DNA of 64,000 nt from positions 1 to 64,000 of IMG/VR virus record IMGVR_UViG_3300024346_000041. The stretch is one strand, 5' to 3'. The translations under genes and the position numbers were made by a program. This DNA comes from a virus. Below, one piece after another: positions 11,867 through 54,232 of the stretch; position 1 is the stretch's first letter, and the number at the start of each line of letters is the position of its first letter. The notes beneath the pieces were generated by a model. It was given only the letters and a program-made list of their open reading frames with translations, was not told the origin of the DNA and did not search any database.

Positions 11867-14357
11867 GGCAAATACTCCGATTAGTTTAAACTTCCATGCC
11901 GGTGTTAGTTGGAACAAGGTGATGTCTATTCTAAACATCAAACCTAGTAGCAGCGCGCTACCAATTGAAATACCTTGCGCTTTCTGCCCAAGCAATCTTA
12001 CCATATATGACGATTACTCCACAACAGGACAATGGTTTTACTGCAAATCATGCCATAAGTCTGGAGACATGATAGAGCTTATGGCTGGAAAGCTTAAAAT
12101 AACTGTTAGTGAAGCCATTGCAGCGCTAGTAGCTAGCGGGGATATAGATGACTCGCCAGCTAATTACGGTAAAAAGGTACAAGACCTCTTAATACGAACA
12201 ATAGGCATGAGAGCCAAAGTACTTGAGTTATGGGAAAGGTGTAAAGAAAACAGCAAGAATATGCTACCAGACCACAGGGTCATAGCAGCTAAGATGGGGC
12301 TAAAAATAGGTCATAACTGGGAAACGCTAGGAAGCACTCTTGTAGGGTTTTGCAATAAGCTAGACGTAGATAAAGCCCTTACTATGTCAAACAACGGGCA
12401 TGACCACGTAAACCTAGGAAACAACCGAACATTTACAGGAGAAGGATGGGACGAGGTATGCGTAATACCAGCCTTTGACATGCCAGGAAGAATAAAGACG
12501 CTTGTACTAATAGGAAACCTTGCTAGTCCAGAACTAAGAGTAGTGTGCAGGCACATCTCTTATAAGCTGTGGGGACCACACGACAATGAGTGCGGAATGC
12601 TATTCCTTGAAGAAGCATTAAGATCAAACCATACTAACATAGTTGTAAGCGGAGACATGGTAGACACTGTAAGACTCGCCTTAGACTATGTAGACAGGCA
12701 CAACAGTTTTCCACCTATACTAGCCATACCTGAAGACGAAGCAAGGCTGTCGGATGCATGGAGAGCGCTAAGCTCTGAAAACAAAATTATTACAGTAGTA
12801 GGTGAAAAAGCTGAAACACTGTCAGCGTCAAGCTCTGCGATAAGAATAGCTCAAAACCCAGGGTCTTGGGAGGCTGGATGGATGGGACCCTCAAAGTGGA
12901 TAGCTAAAGTACATGCAGCTGGCGTTGTTAAAAAGAAAGTGGAGACGTCTCCACTGGATGTAGGTTGGGCAAGAGTAACTTACAACGGAGTTAGTTACGA
13001 AGAAAGACCAGACGGAATATACTGCAAAGAAAAGCTAATGTGCGATGCTATTCTTAAAATAGACAAGATAGCCATAGAAGGTTCTAAGAACTACTACACA
13101 GGAAGAATAAAATGTGGAGGCTTAGAAGCTCCGTTTAAAACTAACATGACTGCTATAGACCAGGCATTCTCAAAGTGGATTAAGGCATTCTGTATTAAAA
13201 ACGATATGCAACTGCCAGTATGTAACAATGGGTACGCTAAAGTCGCAGCAAAGATAGCTCTGCTTTCTAAACCTCCTGATAGAGAAGTACTTACCGCTGT
13301 AGCAGCAGAGAGGCAAGACATAGAATACAACTTCTGCAAGTTTGAAATAAACTCAAAAGGTGAAGTAATAGACATAAACACCTATAGAAAGCTTAACGGA
13401 ACTGAATGCTTTATTAACGAGCCTATGACAGCATTTGAAAAAGGAGCCCTGTCAGACGAGAAGTCTGCTCTAGTATGGGCTGTAATAATACCTTGCATGG
13501 CTAACGCAATAGCCAGCAAGATAGGCTTAGCTACGGTAGGAATAGGGGTAGACCCAGAATCTTTTGAAGATATTAAATTTATTGGAAATAAACTTGGATG
13601 CTATACGAATAAACTTACAGGACCAGTATTCACCAAGTCAGTCATATCTACTACATTATCTGACGAGACTAAAAGCACATTACCTGTAGTAATAGCTCCA
13701 GATAAACCAGACGCTCCTATTCAAAGGCTTGGAGTAGAAAAAGCTTCAGGGGCTAGAAACTGCATAATTCCAATGGACTACATGGCCCTACTTGGTTGCA
13801 GGACCATATCTAGATGGGTATACCTAAAGCCAAGCGCCGTAGAGATAACCAGAGACACTGAATCAGCTTTAAACAAGCTTGCGCTAAGCTTTCTATCTTG
13901 GATGGCAAAAAGCGGTTACAAGACGGCAGGGTTCGATTTAATACACAAAACAGTTAATGCTTTAGAAGAGTGGTGCAACGCAAACAAGATAGCCACTAGC
14001 GGTTTAATCATGGGAGCTACCATGATAGATTCAGACCTGTCAAACAGCCTAAACAAGTCGATAACAAACTCGTTCACTGCTCTGTGTGGTAAATTTAGCA
14101 ATATGGGTTACTTTGAAAAGTCATGTAAGCGTAAGTCAACAAGAGTGGTTAAGTTTGGAGAATCTATGTGGGTAGAGTGCAGAGAGCTATTTAATGCATG
14201 TAAAGCTCACAACGTACCTCTACTTGAACCAAGCAGGCTAGCTCAAGCACTGTTAGCTACAAAAACAATACTAGACTACGCTAACAATCCAGACACAAGA
14301 ATACCTTGCTGGGTGATAGACCCAATTATCTGGGATGAGTGGTCTACCAAGCTTTAG
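11865..14357 (+). CDS. Large protein with N-terminal primase-type zinc finger (CHC2-like)
   Basis: CAFC...FYCKSCHKSGDMIELMA resembles the DnaG zinc-binding domain; no clear TOPRIM DxD. Confidence 0.6.
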   Translation: MANTPISLNFHAGVSWNKVMSILNIKPSSSALPIEIPCAFCPSNLTIYDDYSTTGQWFYCKSCHKSGDMIELMAGKLKITVSEAIAALVASGDIDDSPANYGKKVQDLLIRTIGMRAKVLELWERCKENSKNMLPDHRVIAAKMGLKIGHNWETLGSTLVGFCNKLDVDKALTMSNNGHDHVNLGNNRTFTGEGWDEVCVIPAFDMPGRIKTLVLIGNLASPELRVVCRHISYKLWGPHDNECGMLFLEEALRSNHTNIVVSGDMVDTVRLALDYVDRHNSFPPILAIPEDEARLSDAWRALSSENKIITVVGEKAETLSASSSAIRIAQNPGSWEAGWMGPSKWIAKVHAAGVVKKKVETSPLDVGWARVTYNGVSYEERPDGIYCKEKLMCDAILKIDKIAIEGSKNYYTGRIKCGGLEAPFKTNMTAIDQAFSKWIKAFCIKNDMQLPVCNNGYAKVAAKIALLSKPPDREVLTAVAAERQDIEYNFCKFEINSKGEVIDINTYRKLNGTECFINEPMTAFEKGALSDEKSALVWAVIIPCMANAIASKIGLATVGIGVDPESFEDIKFIGNKLGCYTNKLTGPVFTKSVISTTLSDETKSTLPVVIAPDKPDAPIQRLGVEKASGARNCIIPMDYMALLGCRTISRWVYLKPSAVEITRDTESALNKLALSFLSWMAKSGYKTAGFDLIHKTVNALEEWCNANKIATSGLIMGATMIDSDLSNSLNKSITNSFTALCGKFSNMGYFEKSCKRKSTRVVKFGESMWVECRELFNACKAHNVPLLEPSRLAQALLATKTILDYANNPDTRIPCWVIDPIIWDEWSTKL
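12938..12955. repeat. Dispersed palindrome copy 2: AGTGGAGACGTCTCCACT (18 bp)
   Basis: Perfect palindrome inside a CDS (KVETSPL). Confidence 0.95.
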
Positions 14358-16219
14358 GTGTTCCAGCCTGACATTCCTGATTCCATAGACTGCTCTCTAG
14401 TAACAGAGTACTTGTCCGTCTTAAAGTCAGGCCACCTTCCTGTCATGTGCCATAAACACAAAGCTCCAATGTTGACTGACTGGGCAAAGTCATCAGACAT
14501 GGCTGGGTTTCTCTGAATAGTGTAAATATCAGATCCAGCAGCTGTAGTTGTCTTGTTCTCGATTAAGGCTAAAAAGTCTTGAATAAGGCCAGGGTCTTCA
14601 GAGCTAACGTAATCGTAAGCAAAAAATCTTATCTTCTTAGTTCTAATAGCAGAGCACGTAGTAAGCAGGCTTCTAGTTTTATCAGCTCTGTAGTAAGGCC
14701 TAGGGTGAGTTGGAGAAGCCGGAACGTATGTAAACATACCTTTGCTAGCGGCCCTAACGTACTGCACCGGAAGAAGACTAGACGGCGATATACCCGACTG
14801 AACAAGAACTGTTTCTCTGACTACACCTGCTCCTGAGAAGTCATGAGTTATAAACTCGCATTTGTACATTCTGTAGATCTTTAGGCACTCTGCAGCTTCA
14901 GCCATGTGATCATGAGGTGTAAGCAGACGCTTAGCCCATATAACCTCTATTAGTCCAGTAGCTGTTATTCCCATTACAGCAAGAACGGTCAAGCTTACGC
15001 CCTTCTCACCGCCGCCACCCCAGTCAACTGCTAGTACTCGATGTGCATACTTTTTAAGCATGTCGTCTTTGCAATTAGTTGATGGGTCTCTAGGGTTGTT
15101 TTTAAGGTCTGGATTTGAAGCTGCTTGTAGTTCAAGCATGGACACAAGCTGTAAGCCTGCTCCAGAGCTTTCACCTAGTACTTCGTTTAAGAACTTCTCA
15201 TGCGTATAGTTTCCCATCCCTTCTCTCTTTGCATTCAACTCAGCCCACTTATCAGGTCGTGAGTAGTGAATATGCATAATTGGTTGCGGAATATGATAAC
15301 CAGCGTAGTTTAACCTTCTTTCAGGGTGTTTGTGAATCCATCTTCCATTTCTAGGATGAATAATAGCGAAGCATTTAGCACAGACTGTGCCGGGACGCTC
15401 TTCGCATATGTCAGCCCTAACCGGGCCAATCATGGCAATAAGGTCATGGTTAACAGATGAAACATTTAGATACTTGCAGGCGCTACAGGTTATACACCAC
15501 TCAGCCTGTGAAGATGACAGCCATTCTCTTTCAATGGTGTTATCAAGTGTCTTAGGGGTTCCAGCTAACTTCATAGTACCCCATTCGCTAGCTGACATGG
15601 TTTCACGGATAACTGGTATATGGTCACCATCCATATCCTGAACTTCGTCAATAACCACTTGATCAGCACGAATACCACGCACTCGGTCGGCGTCGAGTAA
15701 GGCAAACGAGAACTGCATCATGCTGTTGTTGCGAAAGCTTCGCTGCAAAACGCTGTTCTCTGTCTCTGGGCCTATCAATACTGATTTAACCGGAGACTGC
15801 TCTATAAAAGGGCGAACGTAGTTACTGGATAGGCGGCGCACCTGTTCAAACAAAGGAGTAATATAAAGGTTTCTAAAGTAAGGTATAGTGGCACAAGTTA
15901 TAACTCCATGCGCCGAGATAACCGTGCTTTTACCAACCTGACGCCCAGTCTTCAATATGGTGCGCCTAGGCATATAAACATTGAAGAGTGACTCAAATTG
16001 ATAGTGCTTTTCTAAGCTGTAAGGTTTACCATCGAGATTGAGTATTGCTGGTAGAATACAGGATAGGTTGGGAATACCTCCCTGTTTTATTCTGGCTACT
16101 ACTTCGTCTAGGCTCTTTTGGCTTTTAGAGGCTTTATCTGTTGGGTTTGGAGTACTAATCATGTTATACAGAATCTCTGAGAGGGTAGAGGACGAGTATG
16201 GTTCTGACGGATACAGCAT
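14354..16219 (-). CDS. terL: Terminase large subunit
   Basis: Walker A GRQVGKS, RVRGI, Walker B VVIDEVQD, coupling GTPKT, FLNEVLG, nuclease LAVDWG and C-terminal DDFAQS; true start may be 16162. Confidence 0.85.
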   Translation of the reverse strand: MLYPSEPYSSSTLSEILYNMISTPNPTDKASKSQKSLDEVVARIKQGGIPNLSCILPAILNLDGKPYSLEKHYQFESLFNVYMPRRTILKTGRQVGKSTVISAHGVITCATIPYFRNLYITPLFEQVRRLSSNYVRPFIEQSPVKSVLIGPETENSVLQRSFRNNSMMQFSFALLDADRVRGIRADQVVIDEVQDMDGDHIPVIRETMSASEWGTMKLAGTPKTLDNTIEREWLSSSQAEWCITCSACKYLNVSSVNHDLIAMIGPVRADICEERPGTVCAKCFAIIHPRNGRWIHKHPERRLNYAGYHIPQPIMHIHYSRPDKWAELNAKREGMGNYTHEKFLNEVLGESSGAGLQLVSMLELQAASNPDLKNNPRDPSTNCKDDMLKKYAHRVLAVDWGGGGEKGVSLTVLAVMGITATGLIEVIWAKRLLTPHDHMAEAAECLKIYRMYKCEFITHDFSGAGVVRETVLVQSGISPSSLLPVQYVRAASKGMFTYVPASPTHPRPYYRADKTRSLLTTCSAIRTKKIRFFAYDYVSSEDPGLIQDFLALIENKTTTAAGSDIYTIQRNPAMSDDFAQSVNIGALCLWHMTGRWPDFKTDKYSVTREQSMESGMSGWNT

Positions 16220-25079: not shown

Positions 25080-25331
25080 TTAGGAGCACTTAGCTCTTGA
25101 TCTACTAAACAGCTTTCTTGTGTTTTTACCACAAGAGGAAGCTTTACAGGCCGGTGTCGATTCCTTAACAGTGGCTGCTGGTTTAACAGCCTCTACCTTC
25201 CTGGCTTCTACAACTGGGCTACTAGCTACAGAACAAGAGCCACCTGAGCAAGAAGACTGTCTTTTTGCAAAGACTCCGTCTACTGACTCGGAACCTAGAG
25301 CGATACTTGCAGCCACTACGAATTGAAACAT
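25080..25331 (-). CDS. Small secreted Cys/Ser-rich protein
   Basis: AGGAGG RBS, hydrophobic N-terminus, SSCSGGSC and CKASSC motifs; own promoter and terminator. Confidence 0.7.
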   Translation of the reverse strand: MFQFVVAASIALGSESVDGVFAKRQSSCSGGSCSVASSPVVEARKVEAVKPAATVKESTPACKASSCGKNTRKLFSRSRAKCS

Positions 25332-25376
25332 ACTAACCTCCTGTTAAATCTAACCGGCCCTGTTGCCGGAGATGAA

Positions 25377-25509: not shown

Positions 25510-25755
25510 ATGAAAGACAAAAAAGAAATCGAGCAGTTAAGAGCTGAATACATTGAAGCAAAAATGGCAACAATGATAGACGATTGCGAAGGAGCCTCAG
25601 CTAATTCAGAAATGGCGTTTTATGCTGAAAAAGGATTAGAGATCGAATGCAATGGTCTTACCTTTGTAGAGCTAGAGGCACTTATGATTGAGCTCGCCGA
25701 GTTAAACGGTGAAGACGAGGACGATGAAGAAGACGAAGACGAAGAGTATGAATAA
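25510..25755 (+). CDS. Hypothetical acidic protein
   Basis: AAGG RBS; poly-Asp/Glu tail. Confidence 0.65.
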   Translation: MKDKKEIEQLRAEYIEAKMATMIDDCEGASANSEMAFYAEKGLEIECNGLTFVELEALMIELAELNGEDEDDEEDEDEEYE

Positions 25756-25790
25756 CTAAACTTAGTTTAAAAGTGTAACTGTATAAATAC

Positions 25791-25852
25791 TTTGTACAGT
25801 AGTTTGTACACGTTCCACTTAATTCACTATATTCTAAAGAATATAGTATTAT
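25791..25852 (+). repeat. 62-bp inverted repeat, left arm
   Basis: Exact reverse complement of 26253-26314. Confidence 0.97.
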
Positions 25853-25872
25853 ACTTTTTAAAGGACTAAACC

Positions 25873-26256
25873 ATGGCTTGTGTAAGATGTGTAGTTTTAA
25901 AAAATCATAAGGATAGGAGTGAAGCTGTAAGGTCACAACATTCAAAAATACCTCACTTTGTAAAAATGTCGTGTTCAAAGTTTCAAGTAGCTTTAGGTAA
26001 GCACCATGAATACGCAATAGATAGGGCTAAAGCACAGTTAACTGAAAAAGGTCTTAATCCTGATGATTTTGACTTTTTAAGTTTTGATTACGTAGAAGGC
26101 TACTTTATGAGAGATATGTTTGAGAGCAGTAACTTTGTAAAAATATGGAGAAATGCTGAATTGTTTAATATTAAACCTTTGGGACCATTTTCACCTTGGT
26201 TTTCCGATGGAGAAGAAGCTGACCAGTTTCCAAATGAATTAGAGTTAAATACATAA
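25873..26256 (+). CDS. Hypothetical protein enclosed by the 62-bp inverted repeats
   Basis: AAGGA RBS; stop TAA lies inside the right arm. Confidence 0.7.
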   Translation: MACVRCVVLKNHKDRSEAVRSQHSKIPHFVKMSCSKFQVALGKHHEYAIDRAKAQLTEKGLNPDDFDFLSFDYVEGYFMRDMFESSNFVKIWRNAELFNIKPLGPFSPWFSDGEEADQFPNELELNT

Positions 26257-26314
26257 TACTATATTCTTTAGAATATAGTGAATTAAGTGGAACGTGTACA
26301 AACTACTGTACAAA
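26253..26314 (-). repeat. 62-bp inverted repeat, right arm
   Basis: Exact reverse complement of 25791-25852. Confidence 0.97.
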
Positions 26315-26339
26315 ACAAAACCTCATTAAGGATTTTAAC

Positions 26340-26924
26340 ATGATAAAAGACCTAAGACTGAACTTGGACATGGATCAACTCACCGAACTTTTAAACAGTA
26401 TTGGTGATAAGGTTAACTTAAACATAGTACTTAGCCCTAGTAACAAAGCTAGGTTTAAATTAGGTAAGGTGGTTAGTCCAAATGAATTTAGAGATGACTT
26501 TAGCGATAACTTTGAAGAGCTAAACTTGCTAGATGTACAACGCGACGGGTGTAGTTTGAGCCTTCCAGCTGTTAAAGAGCCTAAGCTTAACAAACCTAAA
26601 AAGCGTAGGTTTGGAAAACACACTCGTATTACTAGGAAGCATTTAGAACTAAGGGACTCAATGAATATTGCGCATTATAGTGGAAGGCTTTCAGCTCCTA
26701 GCATGAGAGCTATATTAATTAAAGACTGCGATTTGTTTGATAAAAAGACAAAGAACTTTCTTACTGGGCTAGGTTACATAACTCTTGCTGACGTCACAAA
26801 GTCTACTGAGGCTTTGATTCTAGGGGCCTGCAGTAGTCTCAAATTCAGCGATTACGTCACTAAGACGGGTCTTGGCAGGGTTATTGAATGTTTAGAGAAA
26901 ATAGGTGTGTTTTTGAGAAAGTAG
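26340..26924 (+). CDS. Protein with C-terminal RNAP alpha-CTD-like domain
   Basis: IKDCDLFDKKTKNFLTGLGYITLADVTKSTEALIL...GLGRVIECLEKIGVFL follows the alpha-CTD pattern. Confidence 0.55.
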   Translation: MIKDLRLNLDMDQLTELLNSIGDKVNLNIVLSPSNKARFKLGKVVSPNEFRDDFSDNFEELNLLDVQRDGCSLSLPAVKEPKLNKPKKRRFGKHTRITRKHLELRDSMNIAHYSGRLSAPSMRAILIKDCDLFDKKTKNFLTGLGYITLADVTKSTEALILGACSSLKFSDYVTKTGLGRVIECLEKIGVFLRK

Positions 26925-26950
26925 TAGTTTTACTTTTAAAGGAGAAAGCC

Positions 26951-27271
26951 ATGGATGGACTAGCTACCTGTATTGCAACCGGATTAGTTGGATTTTCTAA
27001 TGATAAGGATCCGGTTGACTTTGTTAAGGACCATATTTTACGTAAAACTATACTTACAAATATTGACTTAGTGTTCAAAGATACAGCTAATGAAATAGTT
27101 TTATCAGCAACCGCTGATAACGGTAAGTTCTTTAGTTGTTGCATACAAACTCCTAAAGCTCCTGAACAGGAAGAGCTTCTCACAGGCTACATGTCTGAAT
27201 TAAGAAAGCAGTTCTGGGAAGCTATGCAAGAATGTGAGAACTTCGTAGCTGGTGAGAGCTTGCAGTGGTAA
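26951..27271 (+). CDS. Hypothetical protein
   Basis: AAGGAG before ATG 26951. Confidence 0.65.
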   Translation: MDGLATCIATGLVGFSNDKDPVDFVKDHILRKTILTNIDLVFKDTANEIVLSATADNGKFFSCCIQTPKAPEQEELLTGYMSELRKQFWEAMQECENFVAGESLQW

Positions 27272-27309: not shown

Positions 27310-27579
27310 ATGGCTATTGATCTAAATAAAGAAGACGAGCAGTTGGAGACGTCTCCAAAGCTTAGGAAAGAAGGTAAGGTTCAAATAGACAAGGTTATTA
27401 TTAATAACCTTTCTAAACTTGTTACCTACCCTGCTGGGTATATAAAGTCTGAAGCTATAAACGTTTATAGCGACAGGTGGCGGGTTAACATATGGACACT
27501 TGGCGATAACAACGCCAGAGTTGAAGGTTCTTGGTTTGTAGTAGCTGATCCTAAGGGCGCTGTAGTTTCTTTTAACTAG
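27310..27579 (+). CDS. Hypothetical protein
   Basis: GGAGG before ATG 27310. Confidence 0.65.
   Translation: MAIDLNKEDEQLETSPKLRKEGKVQIDKVIINNLSKLVTYPAGYIKSEAINVYSDRWRVNIWTLGDNNARVEGSWFVVADPKGAVVSFN
27343..27358. repeat. Dispersed palindrome copy 4: TTGGAGACGTCTCCAA (16 bp)
   Basis: Perfect palindrome inside a CDS (QLETSPK). Confidence 0.95.
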
Positions 27580-27586
27580 CGCTTTT

Positions 27587-27639
27587 AGTAAACGGTTTAC
27601 TGTCGTTTACTGCAGAGCTTGTTTAGTACGAGCTCTGCA
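27587..27639. terminator. Tandem intergenic hairpins upstream of the sigma factor gene
   Basis: AGTAAACG...CGTTTACT and TGCAGAGCTTGT-TTAGT-ACGAGCTCTGCA. Confidence 0.45.
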
Positions 27640-27676: not shown

Positions 27677-28399
27677 ATGGCGGTTAGGCGCTCATCTGGT
27701 CTACGCAAAAAAACTAGCAAACATAACGATTTTGACTACTTTTGGAACAGACACCAAGGAACCGTTGCTTTGTTAGCGGCTACTTTAGTTAAAGATTGCG
27801 GTGGTCATGCAGCAGACTATATGGGCTCTATAGCCCTAACATTTAATACTTTTCTTATAGCTTCAAGAAAAAAAATAAAAAGATATAGTGATCTTAGCTT
27901 TAAGCATTCAGCATTTGCTTTTTGTATTTATTATGTAAAAGCTCATTTTGTAAGATACGACTCTGACCTTATGGCTTCTGAGTGGGTAAACTTTAAAAAT
28001 GGGTTAGGAAGCCGTAGTTTAAACTTGTCTAGTTTTAAAGAAAGTAAAGGAAAAAAAGTTAAAGTAACTACGCCTTCTGACTCTGTTATTAAAAATATAC
28101 GATGCAGAGAGGCTGAACTTAATTGGGCTTTAGGGTTTATTGAAGAAGCTGGCGGAATAGTTCCTATGTGGGAGCTAGTATCATCTAGGTTAACTGCTAG
28201 ATACAAACTGATAGTTAAATACAGATACATTCTTGAGATGACTTTTCAAGATATAGGAGACATCGTAGGCATATGCAGAGAACGCGTTCGTCAAGTAATT
28301 ATGAAGGCTTTAATTATTATTCGTAATACTTTAAGAAGTATTAATAATAAAGAATACCTTCATTTATTTCGAAAAGACAACGTAGGTTTTGAGTACTAA
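27677..28399 (+). CDS. Sigma-70 family RNA polymerase sigma factor-like protein
   Basis: Region 4 HTH: LTARYKLIVKYRY..EMTFQDIGDIVGICRERVRQVIMKAL. Confidence 0.75.
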   Translation: MAVRRSSGLRKKTSKHNDFDYFWNRHQGTVALLAATLVKDCGGHAADYMGSIALTFNTFLIASRKKIKRYSDLSFKHSAFAFCIYYVKAHFVRYDSDLMASEWVNFKNGLGSRSLNLSSFKESKGKKVKVTTPSDSVIKNIRCREAELNWALGFIEEAGGIVPMWELVSSRLTARYKLIVKYRYILEMTFQDIGDIVGICRERVRQVIMKALIIIRNTLRSINNKEYLHLFRKDNVGFEY

Positions 28400-28943: not shown

Positions 28944-29741
28944 ATGGCAGCTAGCCTCATATCTAGGTTTTATAAAAGCTGTTTTTACTTAGAGTTATTT
29001 GCAACTGCAGCGCAGCACGGCATCAAAAGCCGTGCTGGCGTTATGTCAAAATTGCTGTACTTGAGAAGTAAAAAAACTAAAGCTTTTTTTAAGGTTTTTG
29101 AAAGACTACAAGATCTTAAGAAGCGTTATCCGTTTCTATGCCTTTCTTTGAGAAAGTGTACACTTCCTTCTTACCTTAGGTTTTCTAAAGACAAAGATAA
29201 GAAGACAGCTTACAGATGCAGTAAGATAAGGTATTGCCCATACTGCTGGAACAGGTCTATATGCAGGGCTTACAGGCGTATGACTAATAACCTATCTAAG
29301 GGCAGCGATAAGTATAAAGACTATGGCTTTTTTTACAGTGAAAAAGTTTCTTACATACCTGTAGGATCTAGCAGCAAGGTTATATCTGACAAAGGTTTAA
29401 GTATGTTTTCTCCAAGATGGAAAATGCGCGCTGCTACTCTTGCCGCTCACAAGGTCGCTGGAATAGCCGAAATGCTTATAGTTCACTCTCACTTATTAAA
29501 CGGAGATAGGGTTTACAAGCTTACGCTTAAGCAGGTAGCTTACTGCCACAAAGATTCTAAAACAGCTAAGTCGTCTTTGCATGCGTCTAAAAGATTTGGA
29601 AAAGCTGCTATTAATTTTTGTTGCTTTCCTGTATCGATGCTTTACGATGGCCCGCTAAGGTCTCTTAAGATAGATGAGTCTTTTAGGCGTAGAAGGTTGA
29701 TAAGGCAGTACGGATTGTTTTATTCAGCTGATGAACAATAG
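28944..29741 (+). CDS. Basic hypothetical protein with C-x5-CPYC motif
   Basis: ORF 28854..29741; RCSKIRYCPYCW. Confidence 0.6.
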   Translation: MAASLISRFYKSCFYLELFATAAQHGIKSRAGVMSKLLYLRSKKTKAFFKVFERLQDLKKRYPFLCLSLRKCTLPSYLRFSKDKDKKTAYRCSKIRYCPYCWNRSICRAYRRMTNNLSKGSDKYKDYGFFYSEKVSYIPVGSSSKVISDKGLSMFSPRWKMRAATLAAHKVAGIAEMLIVHSHLLNGDRVYKLTLKQVAYCHKDSKTAKSSLHASKRFGKAAINFCCFPVSMLYDGPLRSLKIDESFRRRRLIRQYGLFYSADEQ

Positions 29742-29788
29742 TCTATTTTTATAACCATACGTTGGTATTAAGAAAGGAATCTTACTCC

Positions 29789-30250
29789 ATGCATAAAGAC
29801 ACTAAGTTTAAAACCTATGTAGTGTATGTACCTCCTGTGTTTGACAAACTTCCTGATGTCTTGCCAAAATACCCTATGCCTGGAGAGAGTTACAACTATA
29901 GCCAGATGTCTGATGTGATTTCTATATTTGATAAAAGGTGGAAGTCTGCAGGCTCAATACCTGATAGAGAGCCGTTTGCAGTAGCTTCCACCAAGGAAGG
30001 AGTAGAGATTCCTGGGTCAGACCGGATTACTAGAGATATTATATACTCGGCCATAACCAGTGACGCTTACATTGAAGCTGTATCTGAGCGTGAGTCTTCT
30101 AATAAGTTTATTAATGAGTTACTTAGCCTTGACTGTTCTTTGGATGATCAGGATGATCTTGATGAGGTACCTACAACAACGGCTAAGCCACATGGAGGTG
30201 GCGACAAGTGTCAAAAAGAGAAGAAGAAAAGGGAAAACCCAAAAAGGTAG
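29789..30250 (+). CDS. Hypothetical protein
   Basis: AAAGGA before ATG 29789. Confidence 0.65.
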   Translation: MHKDTKFKTYVVYVPPVFDKLPDVLPKYPMPGESYNYSQMSDVISIFDKRWKSAGSIPDREPFAVASTKEGVEIPGSDRITRDIIYSAITSDAYIEAVSERESSNKFINELLSLDCSLDDQDDLDEVPTTTAKPHGGGDKCQKEKKKRENPKR

Positions 30251-53020: not shown

Positions 53021-54232
53021 ATGGCTAAGAGAAAGTGGGACCCAGACGTAAAGATAACAGCATCTGACTTTTTTTCTTCACAGATGACATCTTCACAGGC
53101 TGAGCTTGGACGTAACGACACTTATATTGGATCAGAGTCTCAAAGGGTTATCATAGGCATTCCATTGCCTGCGTTTAGCCTAAGATACTTGTTCCAAAAC
53201 GACTGTTTTCCATTAAGCAGGATGACAGAACTGTATGGTATCAACGAGTCTTGTAAGTCAGCAATGTTGTATGAGATGTTTAGATGGCATGTTAATGCAG
53301 GTGGTGGGTACATCTTCAACCTAGCCGAACCTAAAGATAGCCCTGATCTTAGGTCTAGTATAATTGGCCATGAGGCTGATAGAAAGTGGCCAACTCAGAC
53401 TTGTAACAGCATAGAGGATTGGCAGGAGAACATAACAAAATGGCTTAAAGAAAGTAGAAAAGCTTTTTCTGAGTCAGGGTCTTGCCCTTTTCCTGGAGCC
53501 ATTGGAGTCGACTCTTTAACAGCTGTTGCAACTAGAGCAGAGATTGCTGCGATATGGGAAAAGGGTTTTGCACAGATAAACTTTGCAAAAGGTGCAAACA
53601 TTATTAACACCTATTGTAAGTTTGTGTTTTCAGAGATTAGAGTGTGGCCTTTTAGCTTCATTGGAGTTAACCATATGAAGGTAGGTAAGGACGCAAACGG
53701 TATTCCAGAGTATAAGATACCTGGAGGCCAATCGTTAGATTTTTATGCTACTTTTAAAATAAGAATGCAAAGGAAGGACGACATAGACAGGCTTGATGAG
53801 TCTGGTCGTTTAATTAAGTTTATTATGGATAAGAACAGCCTTGGAACGGCTCCAGAGCGAAGGTCCATACTAGCTCCTATGAAGTGGACATTTGACGAGA
53901 ATGGAGTTCAAACCACTTGGTGGGATTGGCATGAGGCAAGCATACGCATCATAGAAGGAATGACTTCAGTACGTAAGAAGGTTATTACTGACATCACAGG
54001 ACTTAAAAACATTGATAAGTCACGCAGGACTGCTGACTGCTCAAAGTTGGGCTTGGTAGGAGCTAGCTGGACTGAAGTAGGAGCAGCTATTGACGCAGAC
54101 GTAGCTATGAGAGAAGAACTTGACGCTTCTCAAGGTATACGAAAGCGTAGACCTTTTGTTTTAGGCGTTCCCTACTCAACTCAGATGAGGGAAGCATGTG
54201 AAGCTGGAGAAGTTGAGAAAGTGGGTGTGTAA
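53021..54232 (+). CDS. recA: RecA/UvsX-like recombinase
   Basis: PLSRMTELYGINESCKS, GVDSL, IGVNH, PGGQSLDFYATFKI, KNS. Confidence 0.85.
   Translation: MAKRKWDPDVKITASDFFSSQMTSSQAELGRNDTYIGSESQRVIIGIPLPAFSLRYLFQNDCFPLSRMTELYGINESCKSAMLYEMFRWHVNAGGGYIFNLAEPKDSPDLRSSIIGHEADRKWPTQTCNSIEDWQENITKWLKESRKAFSESGSCPFPGAIGVDSLTAVATRAEIAAIWEKGFAQINFAKGANIINTYCKFVFSEIRVWPFSFIGVNHMKVGKDANGIPEYKIPGGQSLDFYATFKIRMQRKDDIDRLDESGRLIKFIMDKNSLGTAPERRSILAPMKWTFDENGVQTTWWDWHEASIRIIEGMTSVRKKVITDITGLKNIDKSRRTADCSKLGLVGASWTEVGAAIDADVAMREELDASQGIRKRRPFVLGVPYSTQMREACEAGEVEKVGV

Follow-up and report, generated by a model that had tools for sequence, protein, structure and literature searches.

A small phage gene enclosed by two mirrored copies of a conserved, promoter-like element

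A gene between perfect inverted repeats

The stretch of DNA analysed here, the window, comprises positions 1 to 64,000 (64,000 nt) of the 75,404-bp IMG/VR virus record IMGVR_UViG_3300024346_000041 (completeness 36%, CheckV), whose source is a large double-stranded DNA phage, uncultured and aquatic. At window positions 25791-26314 a single small gene, the cargo gene, lies between the two arms of an inverted repeat. The arms are exact reverse complements of one another (62 nt, 100%) with 400 nt between them, and 0 such repeat matches are expected from dinucleotide shuffles; the whole bracketed cassette measures 524 bp. The open reading frame (ORF) is preceded by a ribosome-binding site (RBS), and its TAA stop codon is supplied by the right arm. 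This layout had been described in an initial annotation made from the letters alone, together with a motif that is repeated in each arm (TTTGTACA, at 25791 and again at 25803) and a 22-bp palindrome per arm, and all of these features were confirmed. The cassette flanks have only AC in common and there is no target duplication, again as first described. The elements of the cassette are as follows.

25791-25852, plus strand: left arm of the perfect inverted repeat (62 nt), reading inward to the cargo gene
25793-25810, plus strand: TGTACA-N6-TGTACA pair in the outer left arm
25816-25826, plus strand: invariant box CACTTAATTCA, which contains CTTAATTCA
25826-25847, plus strand: 22-nt perfect palindrome (10-bp stem, 2-nt centre) filling the spacer, with its second copy at 26258-26279
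25842-25847, plus strand: -10-like hexamer TATAGT, overlapping the invariant TAGTA at 25844-25848
25860-25865, plus strand: RBS of the cargo gene, AAAGGA
25873-26256, plus strand: cargo gene, 127 aa, with its TAA at 26254-26256 inside the right arm
26253-26314, minus strand: right arm, the same element facing inward and antisense to the cargo gene, made up of TAGTA (26257-26261), the palindrome (26258-26279), the box (26279-26289) and the TGTACA pair (26295-26312)
25771-25779, minus strand: partial third, inverted copy of the box flank (AAGTGTAAC, one mismatch to AAGTGGAAC), a weak feature

An assembly artefact, which had been raised as a way for the initial annotation to fail, was ruled out. 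In the X1 contigs, the 62-nt arm unitig has a depth of 15.6 compared to 7.3-8.0 for the flanks and the cargo. X1 was flagged as a possible source of this DNA and hence is not independent; X4 is a different study, and a 155-nt X4 contig spans 26232-26386, across the entire right arm, in the window arrangement with 0 differences. The same architecture was observed in eight other contigs. As the X1 and X4 contigs break inside the arms, they cannot report the orientation of the gene. No joints were reported for these runs, and a further run, X3, has no coverage of the cargo, which is no sign of its absence.

DNA was obtained for 12 contigs with cargo homologues. Nine of these belong to one syntenic clade of large phages, with conserved genes upstream (window 25201-25344) and downstream (27367-27579 and 28965-30250), and represent seven lineages: the window (W), L003/L004, L009/L010, L011, L061, L062 and L063. 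Inverted repeats of 35-90 nt flank the same gene family in all seven.

W: 62 nt, 100% identity between arms
L003/L004: 55 nt, 100%
L009: 67 nt, 99%
L010: at least 35 nt, cut by the contig end
L011: 48 nt, 98%
L061: 35 nt, 100%
L062: 38 nt, 100%
L063: 90 nt, 82%

The other three, more distant homologues (L008, L012 and L013) lie in unrelated contexts and are not bracketed. Since the bracket is found in seven lineages whose cargo proteins are 30-81% identical to that of the window, a recent origin, one of the two explanations initially offered for the perfect identity of the arms, is excluded. When a conserved neighbour protein served as the query, the scan showed no clade member lacking the cassette, and every member recovered has it; neither an empty site nor different cargo, for which a comparison of relatives had been proposed, turned up. 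A search for more arms, also proposed, found no third copy in the window or elsewhere in the 75,404-bp record. The best explanation is that the cassette is one conserved, vertically inherited module.

Concerted change and promoter-like anatomy of the arms

At the sequence level, the bracketing element is much more conserved than the fast-evolving gene it surrounds. A 32-nt element is identical at 32/32 positions among W, L004 and L009, with cargo proteins that are 81% and 50% identical, and the W and L004 cargo genes differ by 23 non-synonymous and 15 synonymous codon changes. Differences in the arms between lineages almost always occur in both arms of a genome. Examples are a T/G difference just after the palindrome between W and L004, a T to G change inside the box of both L062 arms, and approximately eight substitutions relative to W that are common to both L009 arms along with an inner extension. 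Unshared differences are rare, one being found in L009, where the single mismatch is a G-U pair on the plus strand, and another in L011, at the centre of the palindrome. Even close relatives have different repeat limits, and the outer ones differ in every lineage. The W repeat reaches outward over both TGTACA copies; the L004 and L009 repeats reach inward over the first bases of the 5' leader, and ACTTTTA, a piece of the 5' untranslated region, is also present in the right arm of these two lineages. From the changes in both arms and the shifting limits we infer recurrent gene conversion between the arms as the homogenising process. Ongoing homogenisation, the second explanation initially offered for the identity of the arms, is thus the one that is supported. 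A UvsX-like strand-exchange protein is coded by the same phage.

Read from outside to inside, an arm often begins with the TGTACA-N6-TGTACA pair, followed by the invariant box, a perfect palindrome and the invariant TAGTA. The pair, which folds as a 6-bp mini-hairpin in single strands, is found in some form on the right side of all lineages (as a single TGTACA in L004 and as a diverged TGTAC...GTATACA in L063) and on the left side only in W, L004, L009 and, diverged, L063. Across the arms the box reads (T/G)(C/G)CACTTAA(T/G)TCA; CTTAATYCA is present in 12 of the 14 arms, and both L062 arms have CTTAAGTCA instead. The palindrome starts at the last A of the box, is perfect in 14/14 arms with the same starting base, and has a total length of 19, 22, 23 or 24 nt depending on the lineage. 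Three different stem sequences were found, namely ACTATATTCT/AGAATATAGT in W, L004, L009 and L011, ATTATATCT/AGATATAAT in L061 and L062, and ATACTACTCCT/AGGAGTAGTAT in L063. As the palindrome is perfect yet lineage-specific, its symmetry is kept via compensatory changes. Whatever the palindrome length, the distance from the box to TAGTA is 17 nt (18 in L011), and a -10-like hexamer (TATAGT, AATAGT or AGTAGT, depending on the arm) lies 15 nt after the box. The constant spacing of two sequence boxes resembles that in a promoter, and the left arm lies 20-80 nt ahead of the cargo start codon across lineages. The partial third copy, just outside the left arm, is perfect in L004 and extends over 8-12 nt in L062 and L063. 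The inward-facing TATTAT that had been singled out as -10-like is indeed among the arm hexamers, but it is not conserved in relatives, and sigma-70-like hexamer matches inside the arms are at chance (8 observed, 7.8 expected).

The bipartite pattern of the arms occurs as exactly one forward and one reverse copy in each of five genomes, and a reversed control gave 0 matches. In IMG/VR the pattern was found in 98 stretches, with inverted pairs only in the five known contigs. Eight of the 103 matches have a perfect palindrome, and among the 93 single matches palindromic spacers are absent; two L063-type arms missed the palindrome test only because its length limit was too short. The IMG/VR pattern scan revealed no solo arm and no arms around another cargo. 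As the arms never bracket other genes, they are neither a general capture site, as had been suggested, nor a dispersed repeat. A palindrome scan of IMG/VR returned only relatives and one unrelated palindrome in a coding region (L014). Of the 42 loci returned by a 16-mer scan, 40 are single chance matches extending no more than 19 nt. RNAalifold run on the left ends gave no structure, with an alignment that was not structural.

The arm box CTTAATTCA is the -35-like box of a class of promoter-like sites in this clade. The pattern CTTAATYCA-N14-CATAAT was found 20 times in five genomes (2, 7, 7, 2 and 2 copies), with 20/20 copies on the gene strand and 20/20 at a spacing of exactly 14, compared to 0 in the control. 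Besides the window record (G000), the class is present in G001 (a relative, 92% complete), G003, G004 and G005. The copies in the window record lie beyond the window, at L064 10345-10373 and 10822-10850, which are G000 74345-74373 and 74822-74850. CCACTTAATYCA has two more copies near the record end outside the window (G000 74342 and 74819) and three in G001. The class copies inspected are intergenic composites of a hairpin with a T-run, AGCTATYA, CTTAATYCA, 14 nt and CATAAT, located ~100-125 nt upstream of ORFs. This pattern is very probably the clade's own promoter type, and is built like the terminator-promoter motifs of T4-like phages known as PeSLs. The arms have the -35-like box of the class and a -10-like hexamer, with an AT-rich palindrome inside the spacer and without the T-run terminator. 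Because their nnTAGT at 15 nt is unmatched by the class pattern and the right arm is on the opposite strand, the arms represent a variant rather than a standard member. The right arm is the sole antisense-oriented copy of the box-plus-hexamer arrangement in the genomes examined. Separately, some G000 and G001 class copies have a 16-nt palindrome, GTGGAGACGTCTCCAC, abutting the box.

Orientation, protein product and neighbourhood of the cargo gene

The cargo gene is co-oriented with its neighbours in eight of the nine contigs, which cover all seven lineages, and is flipped in L010. Positions 1-628 of L010, containing the cargo and the arms, match L009 1433-2060 at 99.84%, and L010 562-2031 is the reverse complement of L009 1-1467, with the junction inside an arm. 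In L010, the arm that borders the left flank in L009 runs on into the 3' end of the cargo, and the adjoining flank is identical; relative to L009, the cargo is flipped exactly between the arms. The L010 arrangement is the product expected of a crossover within the arms. From the arm polymorphism, either this crossover lies in the outer 23 nt or there is a C in both L010 arms. In our reading, the flip may arise now and then from the homologous exchange by which the arms are also homogenised. The assembler may instead have chosen this path at the repeat; the k-mers of the assemblies presumably exceeded the arms in length. No serine or tyrosine recombinase (PF00239, PF00589) was detected in three records (G000, G001 at 92% completeness and a third record, G002), and controls matched in 12 and 14 of 14 genomes. 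As initially noted, no recombinase or transposase family is found among the cassette neighbours. No transposase family of Pfam or PHROG was detected in the cargo or its neighbours, the genome-wide search having covered PF00239 and PF00589 only. The proposal that this is an invertible cassette is therefore supported by the flipped L010 segment, but not by the orientation of the other eight contigs or by the recombinase search in the 92%-complete relative.

A recent transfer of the cassette (99.8% versus 95.9% for L009/L010) was considered and rejected, as the flanks are near-identical except for two patches, in gene B' and the downstream spacer. These two patches are sharply bounded and hypervariable (L009 819-882 and 1098-1305 versus L010, with ~22 and ~33 differences). 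They fall in the B-type gene and in the spacer before the cassette, in contigs that are otherwise almost identical.

The cargo protein belongs to a small family, with three word-index homologues and 15 representatives at E ≤0.001 among 1.84 billion proteins. It matched no Pfam, PHROG or PADLOC family and nothing among GenBank phages, and in species genomes there were only two matches, both weak and partial. An AlphaFold model built from 15 sequences (mean predicted local distance difference test score, pLDDT, 85.7; predicted template-modelling score, pTM, 0.81) shows a small alpha/beta domain. Foldseek gave 0 matches at E ≤0.001 in the PDB, the best BFVD match had an E-value of 0.023, and the best VIA Z was 5.1, under the noise level stated for the tool, so that no known fold was matched. 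The charge of the core ranges from mildly basic to near-neutral (isoelectric point, pI, 6.4-9.5 in five homologues) and the tail is acidic. A two-copy prediction scored 0.54, compared to 0.01 for the best of three controls; among proteins of solved structure, 20 of 30 pairs and 1 of 23 single chains attained this score, counts that hold only roughly because our own alignment was used. Agreement between runs is at least 79% of contacts, with a partner pLDDT of 75 or more, and the predicted interface is formed by the most conserved residues of the family (9-11, 15-17, 39-46 and 67-79). The modelling supports, but does not show, that the cargo protein is a symmetric homodimer. A HUH/Y1 transposase was rejected, since there was no Pfam hit and the HH pair is not conserved. 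Language-model neighbours of the protein (Plavaka and RAG1 transposase fragments) share 147-164 features, below the guide value of 170, and are a lead only. A resemblance of the cargo 5' region to the B-C junction (26916-26954, 74%) was judged to be shared ribosome-site context, TTTTAAAGGA occurring six times. The L011 homologue (~388-392) is without a block of ~19 codons found in L009 (alignment columns 429-485), with the frame and both arms kept.

The following genes and features lie around the cassette or elsewhere in the window.

14354-16219, minus strand: large terminase
25510-25755: acidic 81-aa protein directly upstream of the cassette
26340-26924, plus strand: gene B, 194 aa, pI 9.5
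27611-27639: terminator-like hairpin (12-bp stem) that separates gene D from the sigma-like gene
27677-28399: sigma-70 region 4 protein, two genes downstream
53021-54232: UvsX-like recombinase

The phage also codes a DNA polymerase and helicases, and its terminase is ~30% identical to those of 180-187-kb Salmonella and Vibrio phages. Gene B adjoins the cassette in most lineages. It lies downstream in W and L004 and upstream in L009, L061 and L062, a difference in order that reflects at least one rearrangement of the region at the cassette border. The N-terminal 95 residues of the gene B product are predicted to be disordered. Its C-terminal domain was modelled with confidence, and the best structural matches are almost all C-terminal domains of the RNA polymerase alpha subunit (alphaCTD), with Foldseek probabilities up to 0.99 and target TM-scores of 0.61-0.73, but with E-values of 0.08 or above. 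The sigma-like protein is 40% identical to its G001 counterpart, whereas neighbouring genes are 81-95% identical. The cassette neighbourhood thus fits a transcription theme, with a sigma-70 region 4 protein and an alphaCTD-like domain in gene B. The hairpin at 27611-27639 is the only strong terminator-like site near the cassette, and none separates the upstream gene, the cassette and gene B. The acidic 81-aa protein (29 acidic residues, pI 4.05), whose composition recalls DNA-mimic proteins, is present in the window and L004 and absent at that position in L009, L061 and L062.

Possible roles of the mirrored arms and relation to known systems

We tentatively favour a reading, still somewhat short of probable, in which the arms would be two inward-facing promoter/operator copies kept identical by gene conversion. 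Each arm would be a specialised version of the clade promoter, with CTTAATTCA as the -35-like box, a palindromic spacer acting as an operator or hairpin, and nnTAGT as the -10-like hexamer. The left copy would be the promoter/operator of the cargo gene. The right copy, which points back into the gene, would serve either as a convergent (antisense) promoter or as an additional operator of the same factor. Intramolecular gene conversion via the homologous-recombination machinery of the phage would keep the copies identical, and would explain both the wandering limits of the repeat and an occasional flip of the gene by crossover. From this layout we infer the promoter activity of the arms, the role of the right copy and a protein that would read the palindrome. 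Several points weigh against such a reading. The -10-like hexamer is weak and variable, the arm spacing is 15 whereas that of the class is invariantly 14, and a generic sigma-70 scan scores the arms no better than chance. An identical convergent promoter is of no obvious benefit, and the perfect palindrome in each arm suits a protein site no better than a hairpin of nucleic acid. Box and class were linked post hoc, by 9-12 nt of identity, the 9-mer being present at three other places in the genome. Homologues of the sigma-like protein occur in only three of five clade genomes, which excludes it as the general reader of the promoter-like class.

A second account, possible although rather doubtful, places the function in RNA. 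The arms of a longer transcript would pair into a stem of 35-67 bp, and a cut by RNase III would excise or insulate the cargo message. The minimum-energy fold of 25770-26335 pairs the arms fully (-170.4 kcal/mol, z = -10.3, a 62-bp stem, assuming one transcript spans both). Complementarity is kept through two-sided changes in every lineage, the only mismatch of L009 is G-U on the plus strand, and the absence of a terminator-like site between the upstream gene, the cassette and gene B would suit read-through. A stem may vary in length, which agrees with the wandering limits. In size and shape the cassette is like Coxiella's intervening sequence (IVS) as described (428 nt, a 28-bp stem, one small ORF and RNase III excision). 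Pairing alone, however, accounts neither for the fixed-spacing box and TAGTA nor for a box shared with a strand-specific promoter-like class. Nor does it explain why every arm has a perfect local palindrome, which would be in competition with the long stem. In addition, the outer-arm mismatches of L063 are not G-U on the plus strand, and there was no Rfam match. In a less likely extension of the promoter/operator reading, a dimer of the cargo protein would read the lineage-specific palindrome in both arms, protein and site co-evolving. Bridging the mirrored copies, it would either silence the convergent transcription of its own gene through a loop or favour the arm exchange that flips and homogenises. 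The gene would then come with its own operator pair, and maintain it, without a classical recombinase, as a self-contained control module of a new kind.

The remaining explanations appear less likely still. A programmed inversion switch is improbable. The arms would be its recombination sites, and an unrecognised recombinase, perhaps the dimer of the cargo protein, or else regulated homologous recombination would flip the gene often enough to turn it, or read-through into the neighbours, on and off. Such a switch is consistent with the L010 flip, with its junction in an arm and identical adjoining sequence, with L010 and L011 contigs that end in or at an arm as if the assembly graph branched there, and with the predicted two-fold symmetric dimer (0.54 versus 0.01). 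It is at odds with the co-orientation in all seven lineages and with the absence of PF00239 and PF00589 matches from G000, G001 and G002; the lone flipped contig could be the assembler's choice, and if both arms contained inward promoters a flip would leave the gene on. We regard as similarly improbable that the left copy alone is functional, as a promoter/operator, and that the right one is a passenger duplicate re-copied by frequent gene conversion. Wandering limits and one-sided sequences that are sometimes copied across (ACTTTTA to the right in L004 and L009, the TGTACA pair to the left in W, L004, L009 and L063) would agree with a passenger. A single deletion would end such a copy for good, yet the right arm is kept in 7/7 lineages while cargo identity fell to ~30%, and no lineage with a solo left arm was found. 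Least likely, and in our view very improbable, are terminal inverted repeats of a small gene-carrying mobile element, such as a mycobacteriophage mobile element (MPME), a miniature inverted-repeat transposable element (MITE) or a Tn7-type end. Such an element would have the form of the cassette, 524 bp with inverted ends around one small ORF; cassette and gene B do not follow the same order in W/L004 as in L009/L061/L062, and transposase fragments are among the language-model neighbours, albeit below the guide value. However, no transposase was found in the cargo or its neighbours and no target duplication, the outer ends of the repeat are not conserved, each of five genomes has exactly two arms, the syntenic slot is common to all lineages, and no empty site or solo arm turned up. 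The non-autonomous element with TnsB-type ends put forward in the initial annotation is not upheld on the same grounds.

No description of a phage gene enclosed by mirrored promoter-like copies was found in the literature searched, which covers few subscription journals. The nearest described systems each have part of its features and differ in defining ones. Coliphage 186 has two differing promoters that lie face to face ~62 bp apart. The likeness to its pR-pL pair is that phage promoters can be convergent and that the antisense partner can reportedly control the sense one (PMC7498355, PMC5001618). The putative copies described here are identical, ~400-530 bp apart and enclose a whole gene. 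The 23S rRNA IVS of Coxiella burnetii shares a length of ~430-520 nt, one ORF of ~120 aa, terminal inverted repeats and a possible long RNA stem (PMC4990558). In contrast to the IVS, the cassette lies between phage protein genes and not in rRNA, and its arms have fixed-spacing boxes and a local palindrome that an RNase III stem would not need. Mycobacteriophage MPME1/2 are likewise ~440-520 bp long with inverted ends and one small ORF; their sites vary between phages that are otherwise near-identical, and their insertion adds 6 bp (PMC3029335), whereas the cassette keeps to one slot and has no insertion signature. Phage invertible segments, or invertons, such as Mu G/Gin and P1 C/Cin, also consist of a segment bounded by inverted repeats and found in both orientations, as L009 and L010 are here (PMC13501310). 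Differences are the absence of a serine or tyrosine invertase, arms of 35-90 nt with promoter-like boxes, the enclosure of a whole gene with its own start signals, and the predominance of one orientation (8/9).

The PeSL and PmSL motifs of T4-like phages are promoter plus stem-loop motifs that flank ORFans (PMC2839356, PMC4122927). There as here, conserved intergenic motifs that contain a promoter (here promoter-like) lie around one gene whose function is not known, and the location is the plastic part of a large lytic phage genome where early genes lie. Both groups of phages have recombination machinery of their own and no dedicated recombinase, and exchange between copies of the motif rearranges the gene (here putatively). 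The clade studied here also has PeSL-like terminator-plus-promoter composites. PeSLs are many direct repeats that lead to excision, mini-circles and gene swapping. The cassette instead has exactly two inverted copies around one gene family, with a palindromic spacer and no T-run terminator, perfect arm identity, very long persistence, and inversion rather than excision as the outcome of recombination. In large lytic phages, fast-evolving genes of unknown function number in the hundreds, and how such genes are individually controlled or reshuffled is little understood. The arms are a natural case of concerted evolution of a pair of cis-elements inside a virus, and CTTAATTCA-N14-CATAAT offers a way into the transcription programme of a group of phages that is uncultured. 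Were the arms to be active promoters, they would form a compact convergent-promoter device that works either way round without a dedicated recombinase. Together, these features would extend the PeSL idea, that promoter motifs are recombination sites, from direct repeats and excision to inverted repeats, flipping and antisense control.

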